64,000 nucleotides of DNA from Candidatus Omnitrophota bacterium. GTDB lineage: Bacteria; Omnitrophota; Omnitrophia; Omnitrophales; Aquincolibacteriaceae. Position numbers and translations under genes: made by a program. Where the stretch lies: positions 71,966 through 135,965 of the forward strand of contig JAKLIQ010000005.1 in assembly GCA_022709525.1 (NCBI GenBank), in the 5' to 3' direction. Under the pieces are notes generated by a model. That model was not told where the DNA came from. It made no database searches and saw only the letters and a list, made by a program, of their open reading frames with translations. Numbering within the stretch: the stretch's first letter is position 1; each line of letters starts with the position of its first letter. Shown here piece by piece: positions 1 to 61,747 of the stretch.

Positions 1-3000
1 ACGTATTTTGCTTGTCGCCCATTTCCGAAAGCCGGATAATTGCGGGGATGGCTTGCGCCCCAAAACGCATGTAAGCCGACTTGCCAAGCGCCTCATTAAA
101 AGAACTCGCCACGCCAAGAACGTCCGTGATTTTCCCGGGAGAATCCGCCTCGGTAAGATACCCGGACTGAACTAGCGCCAAAGCCGCGGCAGCATTTACT
201 TCCCGGTTTTCAAGGTATTTGAGCAGGACGGGAATGGAGCGTTTATCTTTGAGATTGCCCAATGCCTCAATCGCTTGCTTTCGATCGGGCGACCAATAGG
301 TGGATTCCAGTTTCTTGACGAGGGCATCGAATGTTTCCGGGCGGGTCGCCTCAGCCACCTTCGGCGTAACCGCGCCGGAGCTGGAAGATACCCCCGAGCG
401 GCCTGTATTCTCACTCGCTTTGGGTTCTTCCTCGCGCGAAGCGGCGCTGGCCGAGTCCTGATACTTTGGAATATCTTTTTTCGGCGTTTCTTTCTTTTCT
501 TCTTTTTTGGACTGTCCCTGTACGGACTTTGGTTTACGCGCTTCTTCTTTGGATTGAGTCGTCGGGACGTGTTCTTCCGGGACCGATTGCGCCCAGGCCG
601 TACTCTGACTTCCCAAAGCCACTAAAAATGCGAAAGCGATCGAAAGAAGAAAAGACATCGTTTTTCCGCGAAACCACCTTCCCAACAAACCGCCTCCCGC
701 CCGGCTTTTTTCTTGACGGGTTCGCTCCATATAATAATCATGCAGCTTCTCAAGGTCGTGGACATAAGGTTTGCTTTTGTTTTTCTCGGTAAAATTTCTG
801 ACGGCAGCCGCTCTTTTTCCTTCCTTGATCTGGATAAGCGAAGCTAAAAACGATCCGAGCTCGGAAGGCATTTTGTGATCTTCCAGAAATCGGCCGATCG
901 AACGGATCCGCAGTTCCCGCTCGGAGGGAGAAGCGTGATCGGCTGCGCGCAAAAGGACATTGAAAGCGGCGAGGGAACCATTTTCTCGCAAAAGGTCGTC
1001 AAACACGGTCTGGACTTCCGAATCAAGCCCCTTCTCACTCAAAACTTCCTCCGCTTTTGCGACAAACTCGGCGGGAAATTTAACGGCCACCCTGCCAAGC
1101 GCATGCCTTAATAGTTCACTCATATCGGTAAGGTCTTTATCCAGCTTTGCGAGCTTTTCGGCGGCCCGCGCCTTGGATAGTTTTTCCTTCTCGTCAAGTT
1201 CCCTGGCTTTACGCTCATGTTCAAATTCCACCGCTAACTGTTTCGAAAACGGGACGACAAGTTCCGGTCCGAGGTCACGGCCGCGAATTGCTTTTTGCAT
1301 ATCCCGGACCCGGATGAGCGACATTTTGACATCAAGATCGCTGATTTTTCGGAGCATTTCCTGCGCTTCCTGATTTCCCGTAACGGCGATTTGCATCAAC
1401 TGATTGCGATCAATCAGGGCGTTGTTCACGGAGGCCCTATAGAGGTCGGAAAAGATCGAGATCGTTTCGGGAGTCAAAAGAAGAGCCGCCGCTTTCTGCC
1501 AGATAGGCAAACCAATTTCCGGCCTTTCCTCCGGCGCTAGCCCCTTGGTTTTTGCTTCTTTATAAGGACCTACCGCTTGTTCATAATCGTAGTCGCCATT
1601 TAGCAGAAGAAGGACATCCGCTGCGATTTTAACGCCTTTTAATGAGAGAAGAATTTCCGCAGCTTTCTGTCGTATCGGACCATGCCCGGCATGCATCAGA
1701 AATTCAAGATCAAGAGCGAAGGCCGGGGAATTTCTATCCTGATCCGTAAGCGTATTTGTCTGAAGTCTTTCTCGAAAAGCGCTGAGCTCGTCCCATTTAC
1801 GCTGGCGAGCGTCTTCCGCAGTTTCGCGTTTAAATTGGTTTTGGAGTTGTTCCCGAACATTCGCTTCAAGCTCGCGAATCAGACGCGCGTAGGGTGCGCC
1901 TAGCCGTTTGGCGGATTCATGAAGAATTCTGATCTTTTCAGCGTCCTCACGATTGCTTTTCAGATACGCTTCGAGTCGCTTACGCGCCTCCGTTTTCAGA
2001 TCATCAACCCGGCTTTTAACCGCGAACTTAAGCAGGCTTCTTAAGCCGGTTCTGTCCTCAGAAATTCCGTTCAAATCCACATCGTGATCGCCATAGCTGA
2101 TAATTTCATCGATCCAGTCTCCAAGACCTAGGCCGCGCATCAGCCAGTGTTCAGCATCGCGATGATGAAAAAATCTTAGTTTTTCGTAAAAGGGATAACC
2201 CCGCTCGCTCAGGAAACGTCCCATGAGACGGGCCGCTTCCTGCTGGACGTGCGGATTCCGGCTAACCACCAAATCATATAGCGCCGTACTGATTTCGTCG
2301 GACGCAAGCAATTCATTGGGGTTCTTGTCGTAGTGTTGAAGCGCTCTCATCATGGCTTCCGGTTGACCGTGCTGCAATACGGCAAGCCTCGGGTCAGGCT
2401 CTTGATCTAAGCGAACGCTTGTTGGTTCAACCCGATATTGCCACAGCCTTGCGAAACCGCGCCGGTAATTGAAAGAATCGATTTCGTCCGGGAATAAACT
2501 TAAAAACTCGAAATCAAGCGCCTCTTGCTTTTCCTGATAGGCATCCGGTCCGGATTCCGAAAGGGCTGGATCCCCCGAATAATTCTGGTCCCGAAACGGC
2601 TGAACCGCTCCCCGATAGGCGTCGTGATAAGTTCTCTGAAAATGGCCGGCCAAAGGATAAAAATTCGAAACAAAGCCTGCCCACACTTCCATGAAATGAT
2701 GATCCCCGGCATACAGAACGAGCCGTTTCACGGCTTCGTCCATAATTTGAGAAGCAACGTCCTGATCTGGAATCATGAAATCAGGACGAAGATTTTGTGG
2801 AAGTTCCATCCCGTCAGGGTGGGTGATACCGTTCCACGGAAGCTGGAAAGCTTCGAGAAAAAGAATCGGCTTCCCTTCCCGTCTTGCGACAAAAGCGTAG
2901 ATATTGCCAACCCAAGCGCCTCTGGAATTGATCACCCTGAAATTGAGAAAGTCCGGAGAAAGCAAGTGTTTCGTAAGGTATTGATTGAAAGGCGATTCGG

Positions 3001-6000
3001 GATGAACGGGCGGCATCGCGCCGAGAGCGCAGTTGGTGCAGTCGCCAGAAAGATAACCGCGGATGAGGTCTTCGGCATTTCCTTCGGAAAGAACTAAATT
3101 GTAGTTTTCTCCGGCCGCCGAGAAAGGAATCGAATTTCCGGACTCGTCAAAACCGGAATTAACTCCAAGCCTCTTCAGGAGATCTTTGAAACCGGCATAC
3201 TGCTTATCTCCCTCCAATCCTTTGGAAACGCTGCCATGCGTTTCAATCAATTCGATAACACGCGCAAACGGAGAATCGGGGCCGGCTTCTTTGAGGCGCG
3301 CTAGAAGCTGTGTTTCAATATCGCTTTTGGAAAGATGAAAAACGGCAGATAGGTGCTGCCAAAACCCGGGAGAAACTCGTTCCTGTAAAATCTTTTTGAG
3401 TTTCTCCTGCATGGTTTCGGCCGGAGGGGCACGTTCTCTCTGACGGGCCTTCTCGATTTTTTCTGTCGCTTCAAAAAATTCCGTCCGAATCTTTCCGACC
3501 GAGACGTTCAGATCTTCTTCGAACTGCTTAAGCTCCGGCTCAAGCGCCTGAAACCGGGCTTGAAACTCTTTTAATTTGATTTCCATTTCCTCGGCGCTTC
3601 CCGAAACCTGAGTAATCTCTTGAAGCAGCGAATCGAATTTTTGTTTGGCGCTCATGAGTTTCTGGTTGCGTTCGAGTTTCTTCGCCTCAGAGATTTTGCT
3701 TCTAATGTCTAAAATTCCTCTTTCGAGTTCGCGCTCGGGATGATGAAGCGCTTCAAGTAAGTCGGCGTATAAGGAAGTCATTTTTTCGAGCTCGGCTTGA
3801 ATCGCGGAAATCTCGCCTTCTTCGTTTGCGCCCGTAAGTTTTCGAAGTCTTTCGCTGAGGGCCTTAAAGGCGTTCTCAGCGGACGACATTTTTCGTTCTT
3901 TGTCCAGCCGGATCGTTTCCTTCTCTAATACTTTCGACCGCACTCTCTCGATATCATCACCGAGCGGATCAAAATCAAGGCCGGAAAAGCGCGTCTTTAG
4001 CGAAGAAAGTTCTTCTTCGAAACGATCGAGCCGGTCAAGATCGGTCAGGGTTTGAAGTGCTCCGAGAAAATCAGTTTCCTTTTGCGCAAGGTCCGCTTTT
4101 TTTCTTTTTTCATTTTTGTCTTGGGTTACCGAATCTTGCACCAGCCGAAGCGCTTCATGCGCTTCGTCTTTGAGACGCGCAAGTTCAGGGTTGGTCTCTG
4201 TCCCCGCTTCCGAATCAATTCGGAGAAGCGCATTTTCAAGTTCACGGAGCTTTTCTTCATCCTCTGCCATAGCTCGAAAACTCAATTTGCGGATAAATTC
4301 AAGATAGCGCGCTTTGTGAGCCGCTGCATGCGCCGTCCTGGATTGATTCTTAAGACTCTCAAGTTCCTCCTTAAGTTGTTGGGTGTCTCGCTGAAGCTCA
4401 TCGCGGGTTGCTTTAAACTGAGTGATTTCCTCGTGAAGCGCATTCTTTTGCTCTCCGAGCGATTTGAGAGCTTGCAGCAGTTCTTCTGTTTCTTTCTTAA
4501 TTTGATCCCGCACCTGTGTAAGAGACTTCAATTCCTCCTCAAGCAATCCAATCTCCTGAGCTAACCGGTTTTTTTGAAGTTCTAATACCTGAAGGTCTTG
4601 AGCGATATCTGTGATTTTTCCACGATCTTCGATCTCGCGTTCTGCTTTTCTTTTGAGTTCGAGCTTCTCCGCGAGCTCATTTTGGAGAGATCCAATACGC
4701 TCCTCATACTGCCGGACATCCTTTTGGGCCTGATCCGCTTTTGTTTTCACCTGCGCTTCAAGGGAAGCTATTTGATCTGTGAGGTCTTTCACCCTTGATT
4801 CGAGCGCTTCGACTTCCGTGTCGCGTCCGGCTTTGGTTTGAGCCAGCTCATCCAACTTTTTTTTGAGCGCATCGAACTCGGTTTGAAGCGTGGAATAGTC
4901 TATGGATTTGGCGGCAAAATCGGATTTGAGAAGCTCAAGCTTGGCGGAAATATCATCTCTTTGACGAGCGAGTTCCTGATTCGACGCGGCGATAGAATCA
5001 TGAAGCGTGCGCATGCCTTCCATTTCTTTTGTAAGCCGATCTTTCGCGGGCTCAAGGCTTCGAATAACTCCGATGAGTTCGCGGGCGCGGAGGCGAAGCC
5101 TCGAAAGAAGCGTTTTCATTTCCTCTGTCCTTTGCGTGAGCGCTTCCTCGTCTTTGCTGAATTTTGTTGCCGGCGGCTCCGGCGCCCGCGGAGCGACCGT
5201 CTCTTTCTCAGGCGCCTCTCTCACAGGAATGCCAACGTCAAGCGCTTGATCCGCTTCCTTACCCTTTTCGAGCAATTTATTCATTTTCTCAGCATCATCG
5301 GCAGGAAGAGTTTTGGTAAAGCCGGAATCAGGATGAAAATAATAAGCCCGTCTTCCGATAGGACTTTGCGTGCCGGGCTTGACATTCAAAAGACCAAGCG
5401 AAGTAAGATCTTTTCTTAAGGTCGGATCGCTCAAACCGTAATGGCCGTATCTTTCGTGATACGCATTAAGCTTTCCTGAACGCTCAAGAAGTTTACGGAA
5501 CGCTTTTAGCGAAAACACGGGGAATGCATTTTCGTTTTCCTGAATCACTTCCCGGATCGTTTCTTTTCTCAGGCGGATTCTTGTCCGCTCTGCGATACGA
5601 GAGGGTTCCAGGCTTGGAGTTTCGGATACTTTTTCTTGCTGAACAGCCGTCTCTTGAGCCGGTATTTCGCCAATCGGTTCGTGGGATTCGAGTTCCGCCG
5701 GCTGAGCGGGCATCCCCTCCAGGGAAGCGCCGGAAATTTGAGATTTTGCCGGTAATTCGGGCGTTTTTTGAGTCTCAGCTGCGGAACGCTCGGACGTTGG
5801 AAGCGACGCCTTTTCTTCAAACGCTGGAATTTTTTCCGCGAAAGGCACGCCCTCTTCAAGATGTTTCAGAATCGAACGCTCGAGCCCGCTTATTTCGTGC
5901 GTTAAATCGGAGAAAATGAAGTTTAACTCGGGAAAATTAAACTCCTCGAGCGTTTCCTGAATGCTGACGAAATACGAACTGATTCTTTGATGCAATGTTT

Positions 6001-8860
6001 CTTCAAGAGCCTCGGCTCTTTGGTTGATTTCGCTCGCCTTCTGCGTTAACGGGATATCCTCGATATCTTTTTTTGTCTTTTGCGCTTCGCGAAAAATCGA
6101 GCGGGCTATGTCATCGATTTGTCGTTTTGCTTCGTTAGCCTTTTGCTTAATCTTCTGATTAGCTGCGTCTTCGAGTTTAGACAACATCTGAGATTTGATC
6201 TGGGAAAGAGCCTGGTACTGCCGATTCAGATCGTCATAATAAGCCCGGAGATTTGCAGCCGTTTTAAAATCCTCGATTTCGGGAAGTACAGCTTCTAATT
6301 TCGGAGCCATACTTTCATCGAATGTTTTTTTGATTGCGGTTAGCTTCTCCCAAAGCGCGCGGGGTGAAAGCGTCAACGGCAAAGCATTCATCAGGTTCTC
6401 TTGTTCCTGGCCCATCCGGACGATTTCTTCTCGTAACGATTTAAGGCGTTCCTGTATCGCATCCACTTTGGCTTTGACCTTATTTTCTTTCGCATTCGCT
6501 ATAAATTTTCGGATGCCCTGCGCAAGCTCATTTCCAAGCGCCGCCGGTCCTGCCTCTGCGGCACGCGCTAACGGAGTTTGGAGAGGGTCTTGCTTTACAG
6601 GAAGCGGAACTTCTTTGGATCCCTTTTGAGGTTCAGCGCGATTTTCAGGAGCGGGAGCTTCAGTTTTTGGAATTTCTCCCGTGTTTTTCGGAAGCGCTCT
6701 TGCTTCCTCCGGTTTTTTAAGATCCGTCTCATGAACTTTTTCACCTGTTTTTTCGGGAAGCTCGGAAGCCGTTTCCGGCTGCGTGATCTGGGAAGTCTCA
6801 AGCACGAATTTTCCGTCTTGGACTTTGACAGTGCCGCCCTTCAGAAGCTTTAAATTCATACCCTGAATAATGCCATCCTCACTCATCACCAGTTTCCCGG
6901 ATCGATCTTGGAACTGAAAAAGTCCCTTTTCCTGGCTGTATTCGGCTTGCATGTCCGGAAATTTCATCGACACCCGTCCGTCCGTATGAAAGCTAATCGT
7001 AAATGAAGCGGGAAGTTCGAAGCGGAATCCGAGCAAAAGGAAAGTTTGTCGCGATTCCAGGGTAGCATGAAGACCTGTTTGTGTCTCAAATTCCACAGCG
7101 CCATATGCGCTTGAACCTTCTACCTTGGTTTTTTGCGGAGTGACTGCCTTAAAAGTTCCTTTCGCCTCATCGTTTTCAATCGTGGTGCCGTGCGCAAATG
7201 TTATCCAAATGCCGTCTTTACGCTCAATGCGCGGTCTTTTATCGTCGGCCCTGACTTCCGAACGGTTCACGATACCGAAATCACTGGCGAGCGAATAAGC
7301 CGTCTTCGGTTGAGGCGGCTGATTTCCTTGGGAAACAAATTGGTTCCACCTTTGCAACATTTGAGCCAACAAAGAAACCTGTTGTTTAGGGCTTGTTTGA
7401 ACTTCCTTTTGATCTTTTTTGCCAAGAAACCGATCGATATCGAGGAATGAAATCAGATCCCGAATCCGTGAATCGAGATAGGCTCTTTGAGCGCGTTCAA
7501 GCTCTTGTCTTAACGCGGGATAAATGGGAGACCCTAAAGTCGCGGGCATTCTAAGGGCGGACTTTAATTTCTCGCGGAGCATGCGTTCGTATTCTTTGCC
7601 GGCATTTTTCTCGATCGCGGGGATGGCAGGTGAAATAAGCGCTCGCGATATACCTTTCGCTTCGAAAAGCTCCCCTAAATGCTTCGAGTGAAATCCGCCC
7701 GTGATAAGAACCGCTTTCTTCGGGTGCTTTTCTCTTAGAATTCGCTCGATATTTTTAATGAACGCATGATCTCTTTTTCCGGCGAGATCGTAGAACTTAA
7801 GAAAAACGTCCTTTTCCTTCTCAAGAAACGCTGCTGCTTTCTCAAGATTCCCAAAGAAATGATTTCCGCTGATCGTTTCAAGCTCAGCGGCGAGTTTTCC
7901 CGCGTCATACGAAGCCGGATTATTCCGAATCCCTTCAAACTCATCCGAAGTAAGCTCGAGTGAAAAAAGTTTTCTGAGCAGTCGAATGGTTTCACTGATC
8001 TGAAAGAGCCGCTTCGCGGGAGCGTCCGTTAAGAATTCACTTCTGACTTTGTTTTCAATTTCAGTAAGTTCCCGAAAAAATTTGCTCTGGTCGAAGCCGG
8101 AAGGGGCAATTCCTTTTTCAGGATTGGAAAGTTTGTTCCATTCTGCGAAGGAGGCAGTTTCGATTTTCTTTTTCTCGGCTCTGGTTCTTAATTGAAACAG
8201 ATATTGGAGGAGATCACCTTCGCCATCCTGCCAGCGCTCACGCATCCTTTCAAGTTCACGGAACTCGGCGGGGTACAGTTTCGCCTGGAGTGTTCTGATC
8301 TGGCCTTCGATTTGCGAAAGATTCTTTAAAGCAGCTTCTTTTCTTCTTAAAGCTTTTAAATAAACTTCCGCATTTTCACGATAAAGCGCTTCATCCTCGA
8401 TTCCAACGAGTTCCAGTGCGTAATCGCTTGCAAGCTGAAGGTATTCTTCTCCCGCGATCTTGCCCTGCCTTAAAAACCTCTCGGCGACATTACTGCGGAC
8501 GCTTTTGGCTGCGACCTTTCGAAGGGCCGTTAAGCTGACAGTTCCAGACCCTCCTTCGACCAAAACAAGCGATATGTTTTCTTTCCGGATCAGCGTCTCA
8601 AGGATCCGAGCCAGATTCGCCTGCGCGTCATAAACCGCGTGAGCATCCTGAATGTGATAGATCCATGGGGTTTTACCGTTTCCCCGGATTTGGATCTCAT
8701 CGACGCGGCCGATTTCCTGGGAGAGATAAGAAAGCGGTGGAAGTGTTGCGCTGGGAAGTCTCATTGCTCCCTGATTGGCAAAACCGGCATCTTGCACAAC
8801 CATAGTAAAAACGAGCAAAACCGCAATGACTTTTGTCCACAGAGAGGTCAAAATCTTCAT
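1..8860 (-). CDS. Giant secreted or membrane-anchored coiled-coil and HEAT-repeat protein. It is partial: at least 2,953 aa lie in the window and the C-terminus lies beyond position 1.
   Basis: I translated the minus strand by hand from ATG at 8860..8858 (MKILTSLWTKVIAVLLVFTMVVQDAGFA, signal-peptide-like) and met no stop codon through position 1. It is absent from the supplied ORF track because no stop occurs in the window. There are long E/K/L/Q-rich heptad-like stretches. A second hydrophobic segment (TMSFLLSIAFAFLVALGS) lies near nt ~650. HEAT/PBS-lyase-like repeats (RSIPVLLKYLEN...AAALALVQSG) lie near nt 1-300. Confidence 0.7.
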   Translation of the reverse strand, partial: MKILTSLWTKVIAVLLVFTMVVQDAGFANQGAMRLPSATLPPLSYLSQEIGRVDEIQIRGNGKTPWIYHIQDAHAVYDAQANLARILETLIRKENISLVLVEGGSGTVSLTALRKVAAKSVRSNVAERFLRQGKIAGEEYLQLASDYALELVGIEDEALYRENAEVYLKALRRKEAALKNLSQIEGQIRTLQAKLYPAEFRELERMRERWQDGEGDLLQYLFQLRTRAEKKKIETASFAEWNKLSNPEKGIAPSGFDQSKFFRELTEIENKVRSEFLTDAPAKRLFQISETIRLLRKLFSLELTSDEFEGIRNNPASYDAGKLAAELETISGNHFFGNLEKAAAFLEKEKDVFLKFYDLAGKRDHAFIKNIERILREKHPKKAVLITGGFHSKHLGELFEAKGISRALISPAIPAIEKNAGKEYERMLREKLKSALRMPATLGSPIYPALRQELERAQRAYLDSRIRDLISFLDIDRFLGKKDQKEVQTSPKQQVSLLAQMLQRWNQFVSQGNQPPQPKTAYSLASDFGIVNRSEVRADDKRPRIERKDGIWITFAHGTTIENDEAKGTFKAVTPQKTKVEGSSAYGAVEFETQTGLHATLESRQTFLLLGFRFELPASFTISFHTDGRVSMKFPDMQAEYSQEKGLFQFQDRSGKLVMSEDGIIQGMNLKLLKGGTVKVQDGKFVLETSQITQPETASELPEKTGEKVHETDLKKPEEARALPKNTGEIPKTEAPAPENRAEPQKGSKEVPLPVKQDPLQTPLARAAEAGPAALGNELAQGIRKFIANAKENKVKAKVDAIQERLKSLREEIVRMGQEQENLMNALPLTLSPRALWEKLTAIKKTFDESMAPKLEAVLPEIEDFKTAANLRAYYDDLNRQYQALSQIKSQMLSKLEDAANQKIKQKANEAKRQIDDIARSIFREAQKTKKDIEDIPLTQKASEINQRAEALEETLHQRISSYFVSIQETLEEFNFPELNFIFSDLTHEISGLERSILKHLEEGVPFAEKIPAFEEKASLPTSERSAAETQKTPELPAKSQISGASLEGMPAQPAELESHEPIGEIPAQETAVQQEKVSETPSLEPSRIAERTRIRLRKETIREVIQENENAFPVFSLKAFRKLLERSGKLNAYHERYGHYGLSDPTLRKDLTSLGLLNVKPGTQSPIGRRAYYFHPDSGFTKTLPADDAEKMNKLLEKGKEADQALDVGIPVREAPEKETVAPRAPEPPATKFSKDEEALTQRTEEMKTLLSRLRLRARELIGVIRSLEPAKDRLTKEMEGMRTLHDSIAASNQELARQRDDISAKLELLKSDFAAKSIDYSTLQTEFDALKKKLDELAQTKAGRDTEVEALESRVKDLTDQIASLEAQVKTKADQAQKDVRQYEERIGSLQNELAEKLELKRKAEREIEDRGKITDIAQDLQVLELQKNRLAQEIGLLEEELKSLTQVRDQIKKETEELLQALKSLGEQKNALHEEITQFKATRDELQRDTQQLKEELESLKNQSRTAHAAAHKARYLEFIRKLSFRAMAEDEEKLRELENALLRIDSEAGTETNPELARLKDEAHEALRLVQDSVTQDKNEKRKKADLAQKETDFLGALQTLTDLDRLDRFEEELSSLKTRFSGLDFDPLGDDIERVRSKVLEKETIRLDKERKMSSAENAFKALSERLRKLTGANEEGEISAIQAELEKMTSLYADLLEALHHPERELERGILDIRSKISEAKKLERNQKLMSAKQKFDSLLQEITQVSGSAEEMEIKLKEFQARFQALEPELKQFEEDLNVSVGKIRTEFFEATEKIEKARQRERAPPAETMQEKLKKILQERVSPGFWQHLSAVFHLSKSDIETQLLARLKEAGPDSPFARVIELIETHGSVSKGLEGDKQYAGFKDLLKRLGVNSGFDESGNSIPFSAAGENYNLVLSEGNAEDLIRGYLSGDCTNCALGAMPPVHPESPFNQYLTKHLLSPDFLNFRVINSRGAWVGNIYAFVARREGKPILFLEAFQLPWNGITHPDGMELPQNLRPDFMIPDQDVASQIMDEAVKRLVLYAGDHHFMEVWAGFVSNFYPLAGHFQRTYHDAYRGAVQPFRDQNYSGDPALSESGPDAYQEKQEALDFEFLSLFPDEIDSFNYRRGFARLWQYRVEPTSVRLDQEPDPRLAVLQHGQPEAMMRALQHYDKNPNELLASDEISTALYDLVVSRNPHVQQEAARLMGRFLSERGYPFYEKLRFFHHRDAEHWLMRGLGLGDWIDEIISYGDHDVDLNGISEDRTGLRSLLKFAVKSRVDDLKTEARKRLEAYLKSNREDAEKIRILHESAKRLGAPYARLIRELEANVREQLQNQFKRETAEDARQRKWDELSAFRERLQTNTLTDQDRNSPAFALDLEFLMHAGHGPIRQKAAEILLSLKGVKIAADVLLLLNGDYDYEQAVGPYKEAKTKGLAPEERPEIGLPIWQKAAALLLTPETISIFSDLYRASVNNALIDRNQLMQIAVTGNQEAQEMLRKISDLDVKMSLIRVRDMQKAIRGRDLGPELVVPFSKQLAVEFEHERKARELDEKEKLSKARAAEKLAKLDKDLTDMSELLRHALGRVAVKFPAEFVAKAEEVLSEKGLDSEVQTVFDDLLRENGSLAAFNVLLRAADHASPSERELRIRSIGRFLEDHKMPSELGSFLASLIQIKEGKRAAAVRNFTEKNKSKPYVHDLEKLHDYYMERTRQEKSRAGGGLLGRWFRGKTMSFLLSIAFAFLVALGSQSTAWAQSVPEEHVPTTQSKEEARKPKSVQGQSKKEEKKETPKKDIPKYQDSASAASREEEPKASENTGRSGVSSSSGAVTPKVAEATRPETFDALVKKLESTYWSPDRKQAIEALGNLKDKRSIPVLLKYLENREVNAAAALALVQSGYLTEADSPGKITDVLGVASSFNEALGKSAYMRFGAQAIPAIIRLSEMGDKQNT

Positions 8861-9201
8861 GCGGACCTCCACACGGCTTCAAGGCATTTGATTTCTCTTG
8901 AAAGAGGAAAAAATGCGAAATGATCAGACACTTTGCTCTGAATTCGTGCCGAATCTTTTTTGGTTTTGAGGAACGCACGGGCATTCTGAATGTGGTAAAC
9001 AACGAAAGATCCGGCTTTAAAGACCGGGGAGAAAATTTTCTCGACTTGGCCAAACCCGAAAAAAGACGGATAGACGGACTGCTCGACCGACGAGCCAAGA
9101 GAAGCGGGATTGGCCCACAGGATATCGGGAGAAAACAAGCTAACGATCAAAAAGAAGGAGAGAAAACGAAAACGTGATCTCACCCAGCCAAAAGCATTCA
9201 C
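8857..9201 (-). CDS. Small secreted protein, paralogous to the N-terminal ~100 aa of the giant protein.
   Basis: 114-aa ORF with an N-terminal signal-like hydrophobic segment. SVYPSFFGFGQVEKIF...VVYHIQNARAF aligns with giant-protein LSYLSQEIGRVDEIQI...WIYHIQDAHAV. Its stop overlaps the giant-gene start in an ATGA arrangement. Confidence 0.5.
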   Translation of the reverse strand: MNAFGWVRSRFRFLSFFLIVSLFSPDILWANPASLGSSVEQSVYPSFFGFGQVEKIFSPVFKAGSFVVYHIQNARAFLKTKKDSARIQSKVSDHFAFFPLSREIKCLEAVWRSA

Positions 9202-9275
9202 AAAAAACCTGTGAGAAACGGAAGTTTGAATTGTCCGCTAAGCTTTTGGACCTAGACGGAACCTTCACGCTTCTA

Positions 9276-9329
9276 GCTGGGTGTTTATTTAGCTGGGTAT
9301 TTCTTTACTACGCTGGGTGTTTGCTGGGT
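9276..9329. repeat. Array of four direct GCTGGGT(G/A)TTT repeats, spaced 16, 20 and 11 bp, upstream of the giant-gene operon. Inverted copies (ACCCAGC) sit at 9182-9188 and 9639-9645.
   Basis: Seen directly: gctgggt at 9276, 9292, 9312 and 9323. The reverse-complement motif cgcacccagct at 9636-9646 recurs identically at 35398-35408. Confidence 0.6.
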
Positions 9330-9710
9330 TAACTTTAAAACTTTTTTTAAAAAATTTCCGTTTTTTTCAGAAACGAACAACCGAAATATAACCGCACATT
9401 TCTACGCCGTCAAGATTTTGATGCAAAATAATTTTTTTTCTAGCTTTTCCGGTGCTTTTAAAATCGCGAAACTCTCGGGCTAAAAAAGTTTATAAAGTCT
9501 CTGTCCTGGTTCAATATCAACCGCTTTCTTTCATATTCTTCTGCGATTTATAGCAATTTTTACCGACCCCGGCACTATTCAAACCCGTTTTGATCGGGTA
9601 TCTTTCTATTAGGAAGAAAAAACGGCTAGATGGCGCGCACCCAGCTAAGGACGCAACCACCAGGGTCTTCGGCCGGAAGACCTTTTCGCCGCCTTAATCT
9701 TCAAATCATT

Positions 9711-9953
9711 TCAAAGAATTTTCCGCTGTTTAAAAAATTTGGAGATTATTTCTTTTTCGTCAACGGAGAGTTTGAGCAATCCTTTTTCAACGAGGTCAAT
9801 ATCCTCGTACGAAATCCCCGTCTTTACCGCGAGCTCAATCAAGGTAACGCCCCGTTTTTTTCGCCGCTGTGTTAACAACTCGCCATAGTCCTTCGTTAAA
9901 TCTCTCCGGACCTTCCACTGCGGTGCTGATGCAAGCATTTCACATAAAGACAT
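9711..9953 (-). CDS. Small XRE-family helix-turn-helix regulator.
   Basis: 80-aa ORF. GVTLIELAVKTGISYEDIDLVEKG is a typical HTH_XRE helix pair. AT-rich context. Confidence 0.55.
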   Translation of the reverse strand: MSLCEMLASAPQWKVRRDLTKDYGELLTQRRKKRGVTLIELAVKTGISYEDIDLVEKGLLKLSVDEKEIISKFFKQRKIL

Positions 9954-9976
9954 TCCTTGCTCCTTTGGATCGAATT

Positions 9977-10438
9977 TTAAAGTTCTTCGGTGTTGGCTTG
10001 CTTTTCAACTTGAGTCCCGGTCTTTAAACTTTGATGGATTTCAAAAAAGCCTGGGACATTAAAAATCTTGCGTATTTTTAAAATAAGGTCTTTGGCTTTG
10101 CAACGCTCCTGTTCATCCCCCAAATCAAAATAACGCTTCAAAGAGCTTGCGAGCTCGACCCAGCAGACCAATGCCTCAGATGAAATCAGCGAGAGCCTCT
10201 GCACGAAAGATCCGCCCTTCTCAAAAATCGAAGCCAACACGATTTGTTTGATGGTTTTCAGTTCCGAAGGACAAACATCAAGAAGCTTTGAGATAAAATC
10301 CGTGGCTTGAAGAATACGGTCTATGCCGGGCGATGAAAAAACCCGGTCAACCCAATGGGCCCATTCCACGGCCTCTTCGTAAAGCAACGCTGATCCACGG
10401 AGTTTTTCGATCTCAACAACCATAAATCTCCCCGCCAA
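9977..10438 (-). CDS. Hypothetical protein.
   Basis: 153-aa ORF, 24 bp downstream of the next ORF in the same orientation. No recognisable motif. Confidence 0.4.
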   Translation of the reverse strand: MAGRFMVVEIEKLRGSALLYEEAVEWAHWVDRVFSSPGIDRILQATDFISKLLDVCPSELKTIKQIVLASIFEKGGSFVQRLSLISSEALVCWVELASSLKRYFDLGDEQERCKAKDLILKIRKIFNVPGFFEIHQSLKTGTQVEKQANTEEL

Positions 10439-10540
10439 GTTCCGCTTCTACCGCCGCTCTTATCCGTTTCGCGGAAAGTTTAAACCAGCGACAATATTTT
10501 TTGATTTTCCAACTCAAACCTTTTGATCCTTTTTGATGGC

Positions 10541-11038
10541 TCATTTTCGTACCTCCTCTATGGTGTTGTGTCCGGCGTTTCGACGGCCCAACTTGGTGAT
10601 TTCACCGCGATAACCCGTAAAGCTTGGAACGTAATTAAATTGGTACCCCATGCCTTGATACACCCGCGTGATCATCTCAAACGCTCTTTCGCAATGAGTT
10701 TTCGATACATAGGGATAAACCGTCATGTAACGCTTCAAATACCTGAAAGCATTCCGTGTGGATTTCGGCGCGGTTGTCGCGATAAAGTGATGCTCGATCT
10801 CATCGAGGAAGAACGCGCTTTTCATCATGCCGAAAGAGTCCCGAGGCTGGATATACTGCATTTTCATGAGAAGGAGCATCATTTTATTGTTAAACCAAGC
10901 GCGAACAACGTTGTCTAACTTATAGCAACAGCGTTCTTTTTCGATATTCTTTGATAAAAGCATATTACTCATTTCTGTATTATTTTTTTCATTTTTATGA
11001 TTGCTTGTTTCCGTTTCTTTATCCATCGTTTGGTTCAT
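10541..11038 (-). CDS. Hypothetical protein with a low-complexity N-terminus and a C-terminal R-x4-H (RRNAGH) HEPN-like motif.
   Basis: 165-aa ORF in an AT-rich region. The N/K/E-rich N-terminus and RRNAGHN near the C-terminus are reminiscent of the HEPN Rx4-6H motif. This is a weak inference. Confidence 0.35.
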   Translation of the reverse strand: MNQTMDKETETSNHKNEKNNTEMSNMLLSKNIEKERCCYKLDNVVRAWFNNKMMLLLMKMQYIQPRDSFGMMKSAFFLDEIEHHFIATTAPKSTRNAFRYLKRYMTVYPYVSKTHCERAFEMITRVYQGMGYQFNYVPSFTGYRGEITKLGRRNAGHNTIEEVRK

Positions 11039-11179
11039 CCTTCCCTCTTCTAAAACGAACTATGCCTGATATTTTTTCGTAAGTCAAATAACAGAGCCTA
11101 CTTATATATGATTTAATTCTGTTTGTTTTAAACGCTGTTTACGATTGCTCATTTCGGCATTCTGTGCTATCCTAAGGGT

Positions 11180-12553
11180 ATGTATACGTATCAGAGAATC
11201 TGGAAAGACTACAAAGCGGACTTCTATAAACGAAACCCCCGGTTTCCAAGGGAAAAATCCTTCTCAGTAGGCCGAGCCCTTTGGGCAATCAGTAGACAGA
11301 AGAGAATCAAGTTCCTTGAAATCGCTCAAAAAACGGGAATGCTTGAGGGAAGCATCCTCAGAATGAGCTCTTCTCACAAGCTGACGACTACCCCCGAAAG
11401 GGTTAAAGCTCTAACCGAAGCATTAGGCGTTGGCCTTGATGAATTCTTTCGTTCGGCTCGTGAAGAGTTTTTCGGGAATTTCTTCATCACCAAAGCGATC
11501 ATGCCGCCCGAAAAGGAAGTAAGGGAGTACGCAAGGCAGGGGCTTTTTCTTCAAAAACAATCGGTCCTGAAATACCCGGCTACCGATACGCCCGATTTTC
11601 AAGTGATCGTTTACTCTCCCCCAATCGAAAGTCTTGATGATTTTTTTTCGGCAACAATCCTGCTTTCACCGGGAAAGAGCATAAAGGACTGCTTGCTTCC
11701 AAGACCTGCGACAATTCATCTCCCCGTAATAAACGGAAATATCGAGATCAGATCGGAACATGAAACAAAAACGCTGCTCGCCGGACAAACAGCGCATTTT
11801 AATGGGGGCGTGAAACACTCGATTGTTAATCTTTCGAAAGATCGTACCGCAGAAATCCTGATTAGCTTTGCGCCAACCCTCATGCTTGCGCAGGAAATAA
11901 AAGATTCACCCTCCACAACATCAACCGAAAATCTCAACATATCACGCCTTGTGAAACAAACTCAAAGCTGGCTCTCACCGGCTCCAGAGATTTCGCTTCC
12001 TATAAGGGAAGTCGCGCTTTTCGCGGGATTTAAAACGAGGGATCTTGCTTTGCTATCACAAACAAAGCTCAGCAACTACCCTCTTGAGAAAATGGAACGG
12101 CTCGCCGAACTTCTTAAAGTTCCCATAGAAAAACTCTTTAAAGGCGATCCTTTCAACCAAAGACTTAATATTGAGATCACATCGGCTTCCGAACACGGCG
12201 CTTACGATTATCGGGCCCGGCATGGAATGACGTTTTATCCGTGGATTAAATTAGGTGCCGAAAAAAAAGAACTCTTTATAGGACAAGCAACATTCGATGC
12301 TCAATTCCTGCAACAAACCGCTATCGGTAACGAGCCGAGAGAAAAGATATGGAAGGGATTAAACCGTGGGTATCTGCTTGCCAAGGGGCTAAATGGGAAG
12401 CTTGGAGTACATGCGGGCGAGCGGCACAACTATACGAATATTGACCGGGAGGATACGGTGTATCTCGATATGAGCCTTGGATTTTCCGTCAGAAATTTCT
12501 CCGCTGCGGAACCGGCGAACTTCTTTCTGGTATCAAACGCTTCCCTGTTTTAA
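11180..12553 (+). CDS. Duplicated HTH(XRE)-cupin regulator.
   Basis: 457 aa. Two HTH-like segments (near residues ~40-90 and ~265-310), each followed by a beta-rich cupin-like region (e.g. IHLPVINGNIEIRSEHETKTLLAGQTAHFNGGVKHSIVN). It is the only long plus-strand gene in this block. Confidence 0.5.
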   Translation: MYTYQRIWKDYKADFYKRNPRFPREKSFSVGRALWAISRQKRIKFLEIAQKTGMLEGSILRMSSSHKLTTTPERVKALTEALGVGLDEFFRSAREEFFGNFFITKAIMPPEKEVREYARQGLFLQKQSVLKYPATDTPDFQVIVYSPPIESLDDFFSATILLSPGKSIKDCLLPRPATIHLPVINGNIEIRSEHETKTLLAGQTAHFNGGVKHSIVNLSKDRTAEILISFAPTLMLAQEIKDSPSTTSTENLNISRLVKQTQSWLSPAPEISLPIREVALFAGFKTRDLALLSQTKLSNYPLEKMERLAELLKVPIEKLFKGDPFNQRLNIEITSASEHGAYDYRARHGMTFYPWIKLGAEKKELFIGQATFDAQFLQQTAIGNEPREKIWKGLNRGYLLAKGLNGKLGVHAGERHNYTNIDREDTVYLDMSLGFSVRNFSAAEPANFFLVSNASLF

Positions 12554-13344
12554 ACCTGAATAAGGTTACCCCAGCGTCTTATCGCCGCAATAAAATCGTC
12601 GAGATTAACGGGCTTCGTTAAGACCTCACAAGCACCCACCCCGAGCAGACGATCTTTCTCATGGAAAAAGCTAGTAAGACCGGTAAATACCTTTATCGAG
12701 GAATAATCGGTGGATGCTTTCATTTTTTTGATAAGCGCATCCCCGTCCATTAGCTGCATTTTAAGATCCGTGCATAACACGTTCGGTTTGAAAAGTTTGG
12801 CGATTTTGAGGGCTTCTTCGGGAGAATGGGCGGGCTCCGCTTCCGCTCCTTCGGCTCTTGCGAGTTCCACGCTGAAATCGGCCACTTCAGGTTCATCATC
12901 TACGAAAAGAATGCGAAGATTGCTTTCGGGAACTTTCCGGTTTTTCAAACCCAAAAGGTCCTGTTTCGAGAGAGCCAATTCCTCCCCGATCATGGCTTCC
13001 AATTCGCGGTTCGTTTGGTATGCACTCGATTTTTCGACAACACGAACATTAAGGCTTTGGACCTGCTCGCGATAATTATTCAGATAACCCGTAACGACAA
13101 TAACGCGAATGTCCGGCATTATTTCCCGCATTTTAGTGATGACTTGGATACCGTTGATGCGGGGCATCTCAAGATCAATGCAGGCAACGCTTGGGCGATG
13201 AGCCTCGACAAGACGAATCGCTTCTTCCTGATTCGTGGTGCCCCAAGCGACAAAGCCGCGAACTTTAAGAGCCGATTGAAGGGCTCTTACGTTTATTATC
13301 TGATCATCCAAAATTAACGCGGAATAAATCTTTTCGTCAGCCAT
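12550..13344 (-). CDS. Response regulator with two tandem receiver (REC) domains and no output domain.
   Basis: 264 aa. ILDDQ...CIDLEMP...IVVTGY and ILFVDDEPEV...CTDLKM...TKP show two sets of receiver Asp/Lys signatures. It is a paralog of 18349..19137, sharing the nucleotide string atcaatgcaggcaacgcttgggcgatg. Confidence 0.8.
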   Translation of the reverse strand: MADEKIYSALILDDQIINVRALQSALKVRGFVAWGTTNQEEAIRLVEAHRPSVACIDLEMPRINGIQVITKMREIMPDIRVIVVTGYLNNYREQVQSLNVRVVEKSSAYQTNRELEAMIGEELALSKQDLLGLKNRKVPESNLRILFVDDEPEVADFSVELARAEGAEAEPAHSPEEALKIAKLFKPNVLCTDLKMQLMDGDALIKKMKASTDYSSIKVFTGLTSFFHEKDRLLGVGACEVLTKPVNLDDFIAAIRRWGNLIQV

Positions 13345-13348
13345 ACCG

Positions 13349-13846
13349 TTAGTTATCCTCCCACTGTTTATTTTTTAATTCTTCCTTAATCTCGCGAATA
13401 TCCTGAAGCAATTCTTCCGTTTCCGTGCGTTTAGCCTTTTCTTCGGCCTTACGGCGTTCGTAATCTTCCAGAAAACGAGCCCGAATTAGATCGTGAACGG
13501 CATTGCGGATTTGAACCATCCGAAAATTGGAAGAATTAAGAGTCGCGTGCGCTTCGCTTTCAAGAGCGGGTTTTGTGTGAATATTATTGGACTCCAAAAG
13601 CAAGAGAAGTTTTGGAGAAGGAACGATCTTGCGTTTTAAATCTAACAAGATTTCCGGGGAGAGATCCGGGTTATCGTCACCGTTTATGATAATAACATCG
13701 ACCTCTTCGCGTTTCCCGATTTCAACGGTTTCAGCAGCAGTCGCGGCCCGATAAACCAGATAGCCTTTCATGAACTTCGTAAAGATATTCTCGATACGAT
13801 TGCTAACCTCTCCCGTTTTATCAAACGTAAGAATTTTAAAAATCAT
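13349..13846 (-). CDS. Receiver-like domain protein with a coiled-coil C-terminal tail.
   Basis: 165 aa. DVIIINGDDNPD in a CheY-like fold context. K/E-rich C-terminus. Its start overlaps the upstream HK stop (ATGA). Confidence 0.5.
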   Translation of the reverse strand: MIFKILTFDKTGEVSNRIENIFTKFMKGYLVYRAATAAETVEIGKREEVDVIIINGDDNPDLSPEILLDLKRKIVPSPKLLLLLESNNIHTKPALESEAHATLNSSNFRMVQIRNAVHDLIRARFLEDYERRKAEEKAKRTETEELLQDIREIKEELKNKQWEDN

Positions 13847-16158: not shown

Positions 16159-16162
16159 TTTC

Positions 16163-17152
16163 TTAATTCCTCGCGAAGCAATATTGCATAATTTTTAAAG
16201 GCTCATACTTTAAGTTAAGACTCGAAGATATAAACCCTGCACTCTCAAATATCTTCAAAAACTCTTGTTCGGTTCTATAAACCAACTCCCAGTCCCCTCC
16301 CCATTCCATGAAATGTCTTGCGGGGTTACTCCATTTATCCCGATAATTTGAAATGATCAATAAACCGTTAGGAACTAAAAGTTTTTTAAGATTGGCCACC
16401 AACCGAGTCGATATTTTTTCATCCAAGTAGTCAAAAAGTCCTGTGGAAAATATTAAATGATATTTTTCCGAAAAATACCCTTCAATGTTTTTAGTTAAAG
16501 CTAATTTAATAACATTTTTTTGAAGAAAACATATTTGTTTATTAAAAGTCTTTGTTTTCAGTTTGGACTTTGAATGTTCGATAGCATTTATATCGTGATC
16601 CAAGCAATCCATTAAAACATTCCCCCCTAATTCTTTTGCTTGGTCATAGAACTCGATAATATCAGTACATGGACCTGATGCCAGATCCAAAATTCGAATC
16701 TTGCGTTTTAAAGCATTCTCTTTAGAAAAATCCATTAAAAATTGCTTAAAGTCTTCTTTTCGATTTCTCGTTGCTACGGAAGCTGATGCTTTTAAAAAGT
16801 AGTTGTCCATACATCGTTCAATTCCAGTAGTGTTGGGGGAATTTTTATAAATCTCATCAATAATCATAAAATCGCCATGATACCCATACGGTTTATCAAT
16901 TACATGACGATTGTATTTTCCTAAGCGTATAAGGTCTCGGCAATGCTGGATGAACAAGTGCTTCATTTCATATACTTTACTTTCGTTTGATTCATTATTT
17001 TTCTCAAAATTCGAAAGCCAGTCAAAAACTTCATCAAGAATACTATCTATGTCTTTTTGAGCGTTTTGCCAACCATTAGGCTGAATTTCTAATTCTTTTT
17101 TAACTTTTTCTATTTTCCCTTTATACATCTGAATCATCTCGGAGATATTCAT
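16163..17152 (-). CDS. Class I SAM-dependent methyltransferase with a ~140-aa helical N-terminal domain.
   Basis: 329 aa. Motif I ILDLASGPCTD. Post-I acidic DCLDHD. Motif LIISNY. Not CheR-like (no AxSxGCSTGEE). Very AT-rich gene (~33% GC). Confidence 0.7.
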   Translation of the reverse strand: MNISEMIQMYKGKIEKVKKELEIQPNGWQNAQKDIDSILDEVFDWLSNFEKNNESNESKVYEMKHLFIQHCRDLIRLGKYNRHVIDKPYGYHGDFMIIDEIYKNSPNTTGIERCMDNYFLKASASVATRNRKEDFKQFLMDFSKENALKRKIRILDLASGPCTDIIEFYDQAKELGGNVLMDCLDHDINAIEHSKSKLKTKTFNKQICFLQKNVIKLALTKNIEGYFSEKYHLIFSTGLFDYLDEKISTRLVANLKKLLVPNGLLIISNYRDKWSNPARHFMEWGGDWELVYRTEQEFLKIFESAGFISSSLNLKYEPLKIMQYCFARN

Positions 17153-17156
17153 TAAA

Positions 17157-17552
17157 TTACTTCTTTCTTTTTTCTATGAGAGCATTTTTCACGGCCAAAA
17201 GAAGCTCTTGTATATCGAAAGGCTTCATAATATAGGCGTACGGCATAAGAGCTTTTGCTTCTTTTTCTTTTAGTTCATCTGCAAATCCAGTAATAAAAAT
17301 CGTTGGGATGTTTTCCATTTTTTTTCTTAAAAAGATTTCTCTTAATTTTAAGACGGTTTCAACCCCATCAAGTCCCGGCATTCTAATATCGGATATTATT
17401 AAATCGAAATTTTCTTCTTCCGCCATTTCACAGGCATCTTGTCCTTTCTTAGCAATAAAAACATCGTACCCGGTTTTTTCCAAAACCCTCGAAAAAGTTT
17501 TTGTTAATAATTCTTCATCATCAATCACAAGTATTTTTTTCTTGTCGTCCAT
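17157..17552 (-). CDS. Single-domain CheY-like response regulator.
   Basis: 131 aa. KKILVIDDEE...LIISDIRMPGLDG...IFITGF...IMKPF. AT-rich. Confidence 0.85.
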   Translation of the reverse strand: MDDKKKILVIDDEELLTKTFSRVLEKTGYDVFIAKKGQDACEMAEEENFDLIISDIRMPGLDGVETVLKLREIFLRKKMENIPTIFITGFADELKEKEAKALMPYAYIMKPFDIQELLLAVKNALIEKRKK

Positions 17553-17576
17553 TCTGGCATCTCTCCATTTATAAAA

Positions 17577-18272: not shown

Positions 18273-18348
18273 TCCGGCCGAATGGTCCTTTCTTGCTCTT
18301 ATTCTTACTGCATAATACCCTTCTGTAGTGCTCTCTACGTGTTAAATT

Positions 18349-19137: not shown

Positions 19138-19170
19138 TTACCGTATCCGGCTTTAATTGATGTTGATTTC

Positions 19171-21471: not shown

Positions 21472-21575
21472 TGGTGGGTTGAAAAATAATCTTAAATGCG
21501 CAGCCCAGGGGCGGTTCTCAGCAATCTCAAGCCTTGACCATCGCTTGCGGGAAAACCGCCCCGAATGTCTCTCTG

Positions 21576-53602: not shown

Positions 53603-53610
53603 AGCTTCGT

Positions 53611-61740: not shown

Positions 61741-61747
61741 CCTGTCT

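Follow-up and report, generated by a model that had tools for sequence, protein, structure and literature searches.

Giant genes are a defining yet functionally opaque trait of Omnitrophota, and the surveys leave most of their sequence unannotated. The 64,000-nucleotide (nt) stretch of a Candidatus Omnitrophota genome analyzed here (contig JAKLIQ010000005.1, positions 71,966 to 135,965; hereafter, the window) has at its left edge a minus-strand reading frame that starts with an ATG at position 8860 and is still open at base 1. What kind of protein does this frame encode, where in the cell would such a protein act, and is it made as one polypeptide? The locus is a comparatively small, non-repetitive and tractable case, in which a fold can be assigned to most of the modules. 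It appears very likely that positions 1–8860 are the 5' part of a genuine, very long frame for a modular, membrane-anchored Omnitrophota protein that, by the mechanism proposed below, would operate in the cell envelope. If this is merely another long Omnitrophota gene, the current understanding is unchanged.

Extent of the frame and the in-frame stop codon

Translation of the minus strand of positions 1–8860 yields 2,953 codons from the ATG, with zero stops down to base 1, and another minus-strand frame over these positions contains many stops. These codons are the first third of the frame, which goes on past base 1. The start codon follows a strong ribosome-binding site (RBS), a Shine-Dalgarno GGAGG at a 5-nt spacing from the ATG (8863–8877, minus strand). 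The first-pass annotation of the window had recovered the frame by hand translation and had pointed to its absence from the list of open reading frames (ORFs); both statements are borne out, and the frame is missing from the list because the ORF lister skips ORFs that run off the end of the source.

Extended leftward, as the first-pass annotation had proposed, the frame comes to 8,308 codons in one assembly and meets a TAA at codon 3449 in two others. The former is represented by the JGI contig 3300009838|Ga0116153_10000303, which was reached via a neighbouring 165-amino acid (aa) gene and is identical to the DNA of window positions 541–21038 (0 mismatches); on this contig, the gene is called as a single one, with a product of 8,308 residues (24.9 kb). 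The latter are the ENA contigs L013 and L014, both 100% identical to the window across 9.6 kb. They encode a 3,448-aa protein (P0067) that was detected in an exhaustive HMMER search with aa 1840–2740 as the query and whose residues 1–2,953 are identical to the window protein; a second, same-frame gene of 4,835 aa is called 72 nt after the TAA. The stop codon (L013 11158–11160) is located ~1.5 kb past window base 1, inside the HEAT array, and splits the frame into 3,448 and 4,835 aa (10.3 kb and 14.5 kb). The junction, read directly, is ...GPLLSQI-TAA-EKKLDLIAGAKLLAAIGDPSASRPLLEG..., HEAT-like on both sides, and exactly one stop is present in the 6,782 codons that are readable from the ATG on L013. 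Because 3,448 + 25 + 4,835 gives 8,308, the length of the JGI product, this product is the same frame minus the TAA. The frame was read directly to codon 6,782, and the remaining 1,526 codons are known from the length of the JGI product alone.

TAA is the commonest normal stop in this genome and terminates 17 of the 31 ordinary genes of the window, so reassignment of TAA is rejected and the TAA at codon 3449 is a genuine stop. We conclude that there is one 8,308-codon frame with a nonsense/sense difference among assemblies, the sense codon of the JGI version following from the product length. This TAA, which the JGI contig evidently lacks, reflects either natural nonsense variation or a discrepancy among the assemblies. 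The first-pass annotation had considered that a stop could break the frame into ordinary-sized genes: there is a stop, at codon 3449 and outside the window, but the pieces that it leaves, of 3,448 and 4,835 aa, are not of ordinary size.

The alternative that survives best, and to which we assign a substantial although minor probability, is that the locus consists of two genes. The 3,448-aa protein would then end at the genuine TAA, the 4,835-aa HEAT/AAA_5/VWA product would be either a re-initiated cytoplasmic partner or a silenced remnant, and the 8,308-aa product would belong to a strain variant or another allele. Such a division is compatible with the identical TAA in the two ENA assemblies, with the role of TAA as a normal stop in this genome, and with the storage of P0067 as a complete 3,448-aa product on two contigs, but these two assemblies are perhaps not independent of each other or of the JGI samples. 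The same HEAT register continues beyond the TAA, with at least 3,333 further codons without a stop. Neither an ATG nor an RBS is visible after the TAA, and the gene caller chose an arbitrary internal TTG as the start of the 4,835-aa gene. The JGI product has exactly the length obtained by adding up the residues on both sides of the junction and those between them. Finally, many relatives have uninterrupted ORFs of more than 3,700 aa under the same head domain. The nonsense/sense difference separates the exported half from the ATPase half of the protein and so provides a handle on the one-polypeptide question.

Modular architecture and a possible mechanism

For the 8,308-codon frame, sequence and fold comparisons give the following order of modules from the N-terminus to the C-terminus: signal or anchor segment, TIKI-like domain, beta-rich and Pro-rich regions, coiled coil, a GNAT-fold module with an Asp-Cys-Thr motif (hereafter, DCT module), helical region, transmembrane (TM) helix, charged linker, HEAT array, five AAA_5 modules interrupted by a TM cluster, and a VWA domain. 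The first-pass annotation had portrayed a secreted coiled-coil/HEAT surface protein with an N-terminal signal peptide, long heptad-like tracts, a TM-like helix near nt 650 and HEAT-like repeats at the window edge. All these elements are found, but the TIKI-like, GNAT-fold and AAA_5 modules have to be added, so that the protein is more than a secreted coiled-coil/HEAT fibre. The signal peptide and TM segments were called by hydropathy and the coiled coil by heptad periodicity; the coordinates of modules given below are on the minus strand of the window.

There are only two strongly hydrophobic segments in the 2,953 residues encoded in the window, aa 1–29 and aa ~2735–2757. The first of these (MKILTSLWTKVIAVLLVFTMVVQDAGFA-NQ, with the end ...GFA-NQ; 8774–8860) resembles a signal peptide or a signal anchor. 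Homologs carry an equivalent N-terminal hydrophobic segment, which is nearly identical in P0069, a 6,509-aa full-architecture relative that shares 59.5% identity with the window protein over aa 1–495.

The domain that follows (aa ~45–440; 7541–8728) is similar to hydrolases of the TIKI/erythromycin-esterase/ChaN/TraB superfamily, which includes TIKI1/2, TraB/PrgY/GumN, ChaN, EreA-C, Bcr135/136, HopBA1, RRSP of MARTX toxins and PMT C2. Residues ~40–440 match ~36 standalone hypothetical proteins of ~500–550 aa, from Omnitrophota wherever named and with no Pfam domain. In the alignment of 37 sequences (A1), the motifs HIQDAH, VEGG, GKIxGEEYL, GxE, an Arg and ITGGFH are invariant or nearly so. The candidate catalytic set consists of D72-x-H74, E102 and H391, which are invariant or at least 90% conserved in the 37 sequences, and R363, which is invariant; each of the acidic and His residues follows a predicted strand. 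The superfamily has been defined by a parallel-sheet core, a 2His/2Glu set and a conserved basic residue, represented in RRSP by E3900-x-H3902, E3930, H4030 and R4001, and in Bcr135 by the H85/E113 pair (PMC6254334). E102 follows H74 at a distance of 28 residues, which is also the spacing found in RRSP and Bcr135, and R363 and H391 are separated by 28 residues, compared to 29 between R4001 and H4030 of RRSP. The AlphaFold2 model of the domain (predicted local distance difference test 81.5, mostly above 90 in the core) has a parallel-sheet alpha/beta core with flanking helices, as in the superfamily definition. The top five Foldseek matches of this model are EreC/Bcr135 structures, with probabilities of 0.69–0.99, marginal E-values and low global TM-scores.

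The TIKI-like domain of the window protein has no Pfam or NCBIfam match and no sequence match in the PDB; among the 37 family members, sub-threshold matches to PF04187 ('Tiki superfamily, ChaN') were obtained for 8 (best E-value 2.9e-4), and a single, also sub-threshold, match to TraB_PrgY_gumN (PF01963). The likeness to the superfamily comprises the alpha/beta core as the best structural match and the D/E-x-H, E, basic, H set with the RRSP/Bcr135 spacing, and the RRSP is likewise one module of a very large multidomain exported protein. The differences are the identity of 10–14% to the solved members, large helical decorations, and an Asp instead of a Glu as the first acidic residue. Given these similarities of motif and predicted fold, the domain is probably a distant and probably active member of the TIKI/erythromycin-esterase superfamily; no named family fits, and we file it as a distant superfamily member only, because no curated family model reaches the threshold.

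The TIKI-like domain is followed by a beta-rich region (aa ~530–700; 6761–7273), recognized by composition, which together with the subsequent helical part is common to P0077 (BLASTP, query residues 503–1066), and by a Pro/Glu/Lys-rich linker (aa ~700–790; 6491–6760), a block with 12% Pro. The coiled-coil tract (aa ~1233–1806, ~570 residues; 3443–5164) shows heptad periodicity, is poor in Pro and Gly, and has cross-matches to SMC/Rad50-type coiled coils at aa ~1190–1560.

The DCT module (aa ~1845–2085; 2606–3328) was assigned by fold match and has no Pfam model. The order of its strands and helices corresponds to that of the GNAT fold (beta1-alpha1-alpha2-beta2-beta3-beta4-alpha3-beta5-alpha4-beta6), and its invariant residues, G1935, S1938, D1940-C1941-T1942, W1983-x-G-N-x-Y, Q2006 and F-x-S-N2066, lie in the alpha1-alpha2 loop, at the end of beta4 and immediately behind beta5, positions that surround the classical GNAT cleft. 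In GNAT enzymes, the pyrophosphate of acyl-CoA is bound by a Q/R-x-x-G-x-G/A loop at the beta4-alpha3 junction. No such loop is recognizable in the DCT module, where the consensus of the alignment A2 after the invariant Gln is Q-L-P followed by an insert of variable length with no conserved Gly motif, and the Pfam GNAT models match none of the 19 module members. Compared to known GNATs, then, the fold, the strand/helix order and the invariants around the beta4/beta5 cleft are shared, whereas a Pfam match and a CoA loop are missing, an Asp-Cys-Thr occupies the alpha1-alpha2 loop, and the module is embedded one to three times in multi-kiloresidue proteins, after a helical or coiled-coil segment. 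From the fold comparison, the DCT module has a GNAT fold, a fold-level similarity with no chemistry assigned. Twenty-six proteins match aa ~1855–2160 in the exhaustive HMMER search, with one to three copies in long proteins (2.5–7.6 thousand aa) and one copy in proteins of ~400–600 aa without a hydrophobic N-terminus. A recurring GNAT-fold module with an invariant Asp-Cys-Thr and no family model is directly testable.

A word-indexed search with aa 1820–2400 as the query found nothing, and the negative results of this search are weak evidence, given that it missed P0067, which is identical to the query and present in its collection, as well as the 26 relatives detectable with HMMER. The mostly helical region downstream of the DCT module (aa ~2160–2730; 671–2383) has no detectable relatives beyond the same gene, and no relative of aa 2400–2750 was found in a search of genome contigs. 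The modules are shared piecemeal with other proteins: the coiled coil and DCT module with P0069 and P0075, the beta-rich/helical block with P0077, and the HEAT region with P0070 and P0075. P0077 (3,365 aa; UniRef100_A0A2H0LSX1), from Candidatus Abzuiibacterium crystallinum, combines the beta-rich/helical block with the DCT module. A near-identical cluster member from the same organism, P0106 (3,373 aa), is named 'Peptidase M28 domain-containing protein' by one source, which suggests that such mosaics combine with other hydrolases as well.

The second hydrophobic segment (aa ~2735–2757; 590–658) is a TM helix that is itself signal-peptide-like, with RWFRGK before it and AWA-Q after it. It leads into a low-complexity Lys/Glu/Ser-rich linker (aa ~2758–2835; 356–589) and the start of the HEAT array (aa 2836–2953 in the window; 1–355), which spans ~1,200 residues and reaches about aa 4050. 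Within the window, HEAT_2 is matched at aa 2846–2901 (E-value 1.3e-8), and past it with E-values of 1.3e-39 and 1e-64; residues 3000–3448, used as a homology query, retrieve generic HEAT proteins only. The subsequent AAA_5 match (E-value 3e-120) comprises five modules, at aa ~4515–4691, 4877–5010, 5774–5943, 6147–6335 and 6519–6699, a count that covers the residues up to 6,782 of 8,308, and is accompanied by matches to AAA_lid_7 (midasin-type lids) and bpMoxR. A VWA domain is listed among the precomputed matches of the 4,835-aa product as a whole. For the 6,782 residues, 25 of the 48 P-loop-type families matched were listed, and SecA_DEAD does not occur among these 25. Between AAA_5 modules 2 and 3, there is a hydrophobic cluster (aa 5469–5653; L013 ~17218–17772) of three strong stretches, one of 42 residues, probably corresponding to four TM helices; this is an odd site for membrane helices within an AAA+ array. 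Tandem AAA_5 modules with midasin-type lids and a VWA/MIDAS-type domain in one frame resemble midasin (Rea1/MDN1) and the bacterial MoxR-VWA systems. The present protein differs from these in that its AAA modules come after the signal peptide, the predicted exported region, the TM helix and the HEAT array, and in that a TM cluster intervenes between modules 2 and 3. The midasin ring has six AAA modules; up to residue 6,782, five are found here.

The arrangement of these modules suggests a possible mechanism. The N-terminal signal would export residues ~30–2734 across the inner membrane, and the TM helix at ~2735–2757 would bring the chain back to the cytoplasm (outside to inside), where the HEAT scaffold and the ATP-dependent AAA_5/VWA part would sit. 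The C-terminal half is most likely cytoplasmic because AAA+ ATPases need ATP and the HEAT array is contiguous with the AAA_5 modules; for the same reason, the protein is likely to span the membrane. The whole would be an envelope-anchored device in which an extracytoplasmic coiled-coil stalk with two enzyme-like heads is joined to a cytoplasmic scaffold and motor. At 0.148 nm per residue, the ~570 residues of an unbroken stalk would measure about 85 nm. The TIKI-like head would most likely act as a protease or esterase, perhaps on the long protein itself or its neighbours, in maturation, or perhaps on substrates in the envelope or on a host surface.

Several points weigh against this scheme. 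The positive charges on the N-side of the TM helix (RWFRGK) fit the opposite orientation better, and the topology derives from hydropathy. A GNAT-fold enzyme normally depends on cytoplasmic acyl-CoA, at odds with an extracytoplasmic site, although the canonical CoA pyrophosphate loop is not evident in the DCT module. Genes for type II secretion and pili, the usual neighbours of Omnitrophota giants, are absent from the 55 kb rightward of the gene, the side covered by the neighbour scan. The length of the single product is taken from the JGI gene call. Under the TAA allele, the 4,835 downstream codons, with no visible RBS or ATG, may not be translated at all.

Another alternative, close to the reading of the first-pass annotation and regarded here as unlikely, is a passive secreted fibre or adhesin. 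The coiled coil and the HEAT array would then make up a coat or an attachment structure outside the cell, with a merely structural role for the globular parts. A signal-like N-terminus and a long coiled coil are what such a fibre would have, HEAT repeats of Archaeovorins are predicted to be extracellular (West-Roberts 2023), and adhesin roles have been discussed for giant ORFs (Seymour 2023, PMC10066038). A purely structural role is at odds, however, with the conservation of the catalytic-type residues of the TIKI-like domain across the family, with the invariant D-C-T and other cleft residues of the GNAT-like module and with the contiguity of the HEAT array with ATP-dependent AAA_5 modules, and the adhesin-type domains discoidin, laminin_G, dockerin and TSP3 are all absent from the 6,782 residues read.

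The notion that the contig is chimeric or collapsed, or that ordinary neighbouring genes were fused by sequencing errors, can practically be dismissed: metagenomic giant ORFs are often doubted, this gene is absent from the mechanical ORF list and one in-frame stop differs among assemblies, but six contigs, taken from five assemblies that come from different pipelines (JGI, Logan, ENA), show 100% identity across the locus, 2,953 open codons are impossible by chance, relatives with the same module order are found in other genomes, and the absence from the list is a tool convention. Nothing in the gene could collapse, as there are no DNA tandem repeats in 1–8860 and no internal repeats in the 2,953-aa protein. 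Assembly collapse in the coiled-coil region, for which the first-pass annotation had recommended a check with long reads, was rejected on the combined evidence of the repeat-free gene and the base-for-base agreement of the six contigs, and collapse or chimerism of the locus is very unlikely.

Giant proteins and the TIKI-like family of Omnitrophota

The reading of the locus as one very long modular gene places it in a documented class. ORFs of more than 20 kb are present in most genomes of several Omnitrophota classes (Seymour 2023, PMC10066038), and proteins of up to 85,804 aa (West-Roberts 2023; ORF cut-off >90 kb) and up to 147,155 aa (Nielsen & Lui 2026; cut-off >=10,000 aa) have been described. 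HEAT_2 and AAA_5 rank within the 20 commonest domains of the 'Archaeovorin' giants, typified by the 39,678-aa protein of Velamenicoccus archaeovorus LiM, and C39 or S8 peptidases are found next to the signal peptides of other Omnitrophota giants (West-Roberts 2023). The long proteins of this phylum are mosaics of modules, and 94% of those catalogued have signal peptides or TM helices (Nielsen & Lui 2026). TPR, glycosyltransferase and SecA_DEAD domains also belong to the typical repertoire, and genes for type II secretion, type IV pili or glycoside hydrolases are expected within about 20 ORFs of a giant gene. The present protein shares with them the Omnitrophota host, the multi-kiloresidue frame, the signal peptide plus TM helix class, the combination of HEAT_2 and AAA_5, the mosaic structure, and a hydrolase-type domain beside the N-terminal signal, where others have C39 or S8. 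It differs in size, its 8,308 codons (24.9 kb) falling under the cut-offs of 10,000 aa, 30,000 aa and 90 kb, in the TIKI-like identity of the N-terminal domain, and in the in-frame TAA of some assemblies. In the 6,782 residues read, we found no glycosyltransferase, TPR, C39 or S8 domains, and, unlike in other giants, glycosyltransferase, dockerin and TSP3 domains, as well as secretion or pilus neighbours on the right side, are all missing. The 20-kb threshold of Seymour is exceeded by the frame as called by JGI (24.9 kb), whereas the TAA allele yields 10.3 kb and 14.5 kb. The gene is a smaller member of the known class of Omnitrophota giants, in line with the first-pass annotation, which had called giant surface proteins of this style hallmarks of some uncultivated lineages. 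New here are the folds assigned to its modules, the family of TIKI-like heads together with its association with long genes, the DCT module with its GNAT fold, and the polymorphic in-frame TAA. The giant-gene papers (West-Roberts 2023; Nielsen & Lui 2026) mention no domain of the TIKI/TraB/ChaN type, and we found no literature connecting these terms with Omnitrophota.

A profile scan of species-representative genomes detected at least 453 TIKI-like loci, overwhelmingly in Omnitrophota; the linkage counts given here come from 79 of these that were fetched. The TIKI-like domain heads an ORF of at least 1,000 aa in 24 of the 79 loci, with many of these ORFs longer than 3,700 aa and still open at the edge of the locus, and the gene is standalone in 44. 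Another ORF of at least 1,500 aa is present within 10 kb in 31 loci, always on the same strand, including 25 of the 44 with a standalone gene (table count). In three of the first six loci examined, the standalone gene is located inside same-strand arrays of giant or very long genes, with upstream neighbours of at least 17,569, at least 21,322 and at least 7,199 aa, and in two others of the six, it is followed by a protein of 1,071 aa or 2,846 aa. P0069, P0068 and P0071 all begin with the TIKI-like domain; an insert of ~95 aa that is present in the standalone members is absent from these three proteins and from the window copy. That the genes downstream of standalone homologs might represent the missing rest of the window protein was rejected, as only aa ~40–440 are common to them.

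The role of the TIKI-like family is most likely either maturation and processing or attack on envelope or host substrates, as judged from our analysis of its fusion to or location beside very long genes and from the presence of C39 or S8 peptidases at the equivalent position of other giants. A TIKI-superfamily family that heads or flanks very long genes is thus a candidate processing or maturation enzyme. The most far-reaching version of the proposed scheme, which we consider improbable, is a trans-envelope mechanoenzyme of a hitherto undescribed type, in which a cytoplasmic midasin-like AAA+ ring with a MIDAS/VWA domain and the HEAT scaffold is linked by the membrane helix to the ~85-nm stalk with a TIKI-type protease/esterase and a CoA-independent GNAT-fold enzyme at its tip, combined with the TIKI-like family as the maturation protease of the giants. 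If it were true, the surface of a host or prey would be attacked enzymatically, with cytoplasmic ATP hydrolysis as the driving or gating force, and the TIKI-like family (at least 453 loci), fused or adjacent, would take the role proposed for C39 and S8 in other giants.

Several features of the family loci are worth recording. Directly after the standalone TIKI-like gene, FBPase_3-domain proteins of 1,019–1,870 aa are encoded in three loci (L006 11586–16421, L009 11593–17205, L011 11642–14701), and beyond these genes there are multi-kiloresidue fusions of glycolytic enzymes (PPDK; GPI-TIM-PGK-enolase). In L006/L007 (9478–9810) and L011 (5856–6200), a PilZ-domain gene of 110–114 aa separates the TIKI-like gene from a giant one, the product of which has at least 7,199 to at least 17,569 aa; its recurrence in two unrelated loci hints at control of such arrays by cyclic di-GMP. 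The window itself contains a REC-GGDEF-EAL gene (23837–25528), and in L012, a REC-GGDEF-HD gene is directly upstream of P0071. P0071 (3,701 aa, MFA6599522.1) probably starts 55 codons upstream of its annotated start (L012 5836–6003), at an in-frame GTG that is preceded by GAAGGAA and would add a signal-peptide-like N-terminus.

The upstream region and the surrounding chromosome

Immediately upstream of the long gene, and overlapping it by an ATGA, is a 114-aa ORF with a GTG start (8857–9201, minus strand), which the first-pass annotation had described as a signal-peptide paralog of the beginning of the giant protein. The ORF and its overlap are there, and a weak similarity is detectable, but the copy, which covers the signal peptide and the first strands encoded at the 5' end of the gene, is truncated and degenerate. 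BLASTP aligns a single 20-aa block with the giant protein (E-value 0.003), and hhalign against the family profile gives a probability of 69% and an E-value of 4.5e-5 over 71 collinear columns, residues 12–89 corresponding to positions 20–90. The catalytic D-x-H is replaced by N-x-R, and the ORF ends before the Glu. It has no Shine-Dalgarno sequence, was called by one of three callers (JGI), those of ENA and Logan having chosen an 85-aa ORF on the opposite strand, and no such ORF precedes the relative P0071. The best interpretation of the 114-aa ORF is that the 5' end of the gene was partially duplicated and the copy has since decayed; translation of this ORF is doubtful.

On the strand of the gene, an 80-aa HTH-like gene, a terminator-like hairpin, a promoter candidate, four ACCCAGC repeats and the 114-aa ORF follow one another. 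The repeats correspond to GCTGGGT on the plus strand at 9276, 9292, 9312 and 9323 (9276–9329; start-to-start spacing of 11, 20 and 16 nt), with the consensus AAAYACCCAGC for three of the four copies. No second cluster like it exists in the window, and a comparable cluster of any heptamer appears in 2 of 300 composition-matched simulations, which marks it as non-random. Copies of the heptamer in the opposite orientation, noticed in the first-pass annotation along with the four direct ones, do exist, but to say that they flank the array is generous: one (9182–9188, plus strand) is located 88 nt away, inside the 5' end of the 114-aa ORF, and the other (9639–9645) 310 nt away, within the hairpin and T-run that follow the HTH-like gene (9615–9645, minus strand). 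The promoter candidate is sigma-70-like (9385–9413, minus strand; TTGACG, 17-nt spacer, TATATT), identified by 10 of 12 consensus matches only; in a transcript that starts from it, the repeats would lie at about +50 to +100. That the leader is a known or a structured RNA element was rejected, as there is no Rfam match and the folding (z = -1.1) is no better than that of shuffled sequence. The heptamer is not clustered at the loci of relatives and is absent upstream of P0071. Judging from the sequence, the simplest reading of the four repeats is that they are locus-specific, putative protein-binding (operator-type) sites.

The phylum assignment agrees with the rest of the window: YidC, MnmG, PolA, the GH94 phosphorylase and a 457-aa hypothetical protein are exact matches to proteins from 'Candidatus Omnitrophota bacterium' metagenome-assembled genomes, the longest contig that carries them being 146.5 kb, and every named relative of the window protein comes from Omnitrophota. 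The remainder of the window is ordinary chromosome, with Rho, PolA, a MurA-type enzyme, biotin genes, a GH94/ROK/sugar-ABC (ATP-binding cassette) cluster and two-component systems. The segment directly upstream of the long gene (9700–23000) is lower in G+C (35–46%, compared to 51–56% elsewhere) and is densely occupied by small HTH-like genes and by genes for several receiver-domain proteins or response regulators, for a methyltransferase and for a HisKA_7TM histidine kinase. Possibly, this segment is a regulatory island that was acquired. At the right end, MnmG (GidA) and YidC are adjacent (59806–63385), an arrangement that is typical near the replication origin. The ROK regulator, GH94 (cellobiose-phosphorylase-type) and sugar-ABC genes occupy positions 50099–57497, ~42 kb from the long gene, and in another genome (L008 5886–9922), the same three genes directly precede a standalone TIKI-like gene, with a 2,846-aa protein encoded after the latter.

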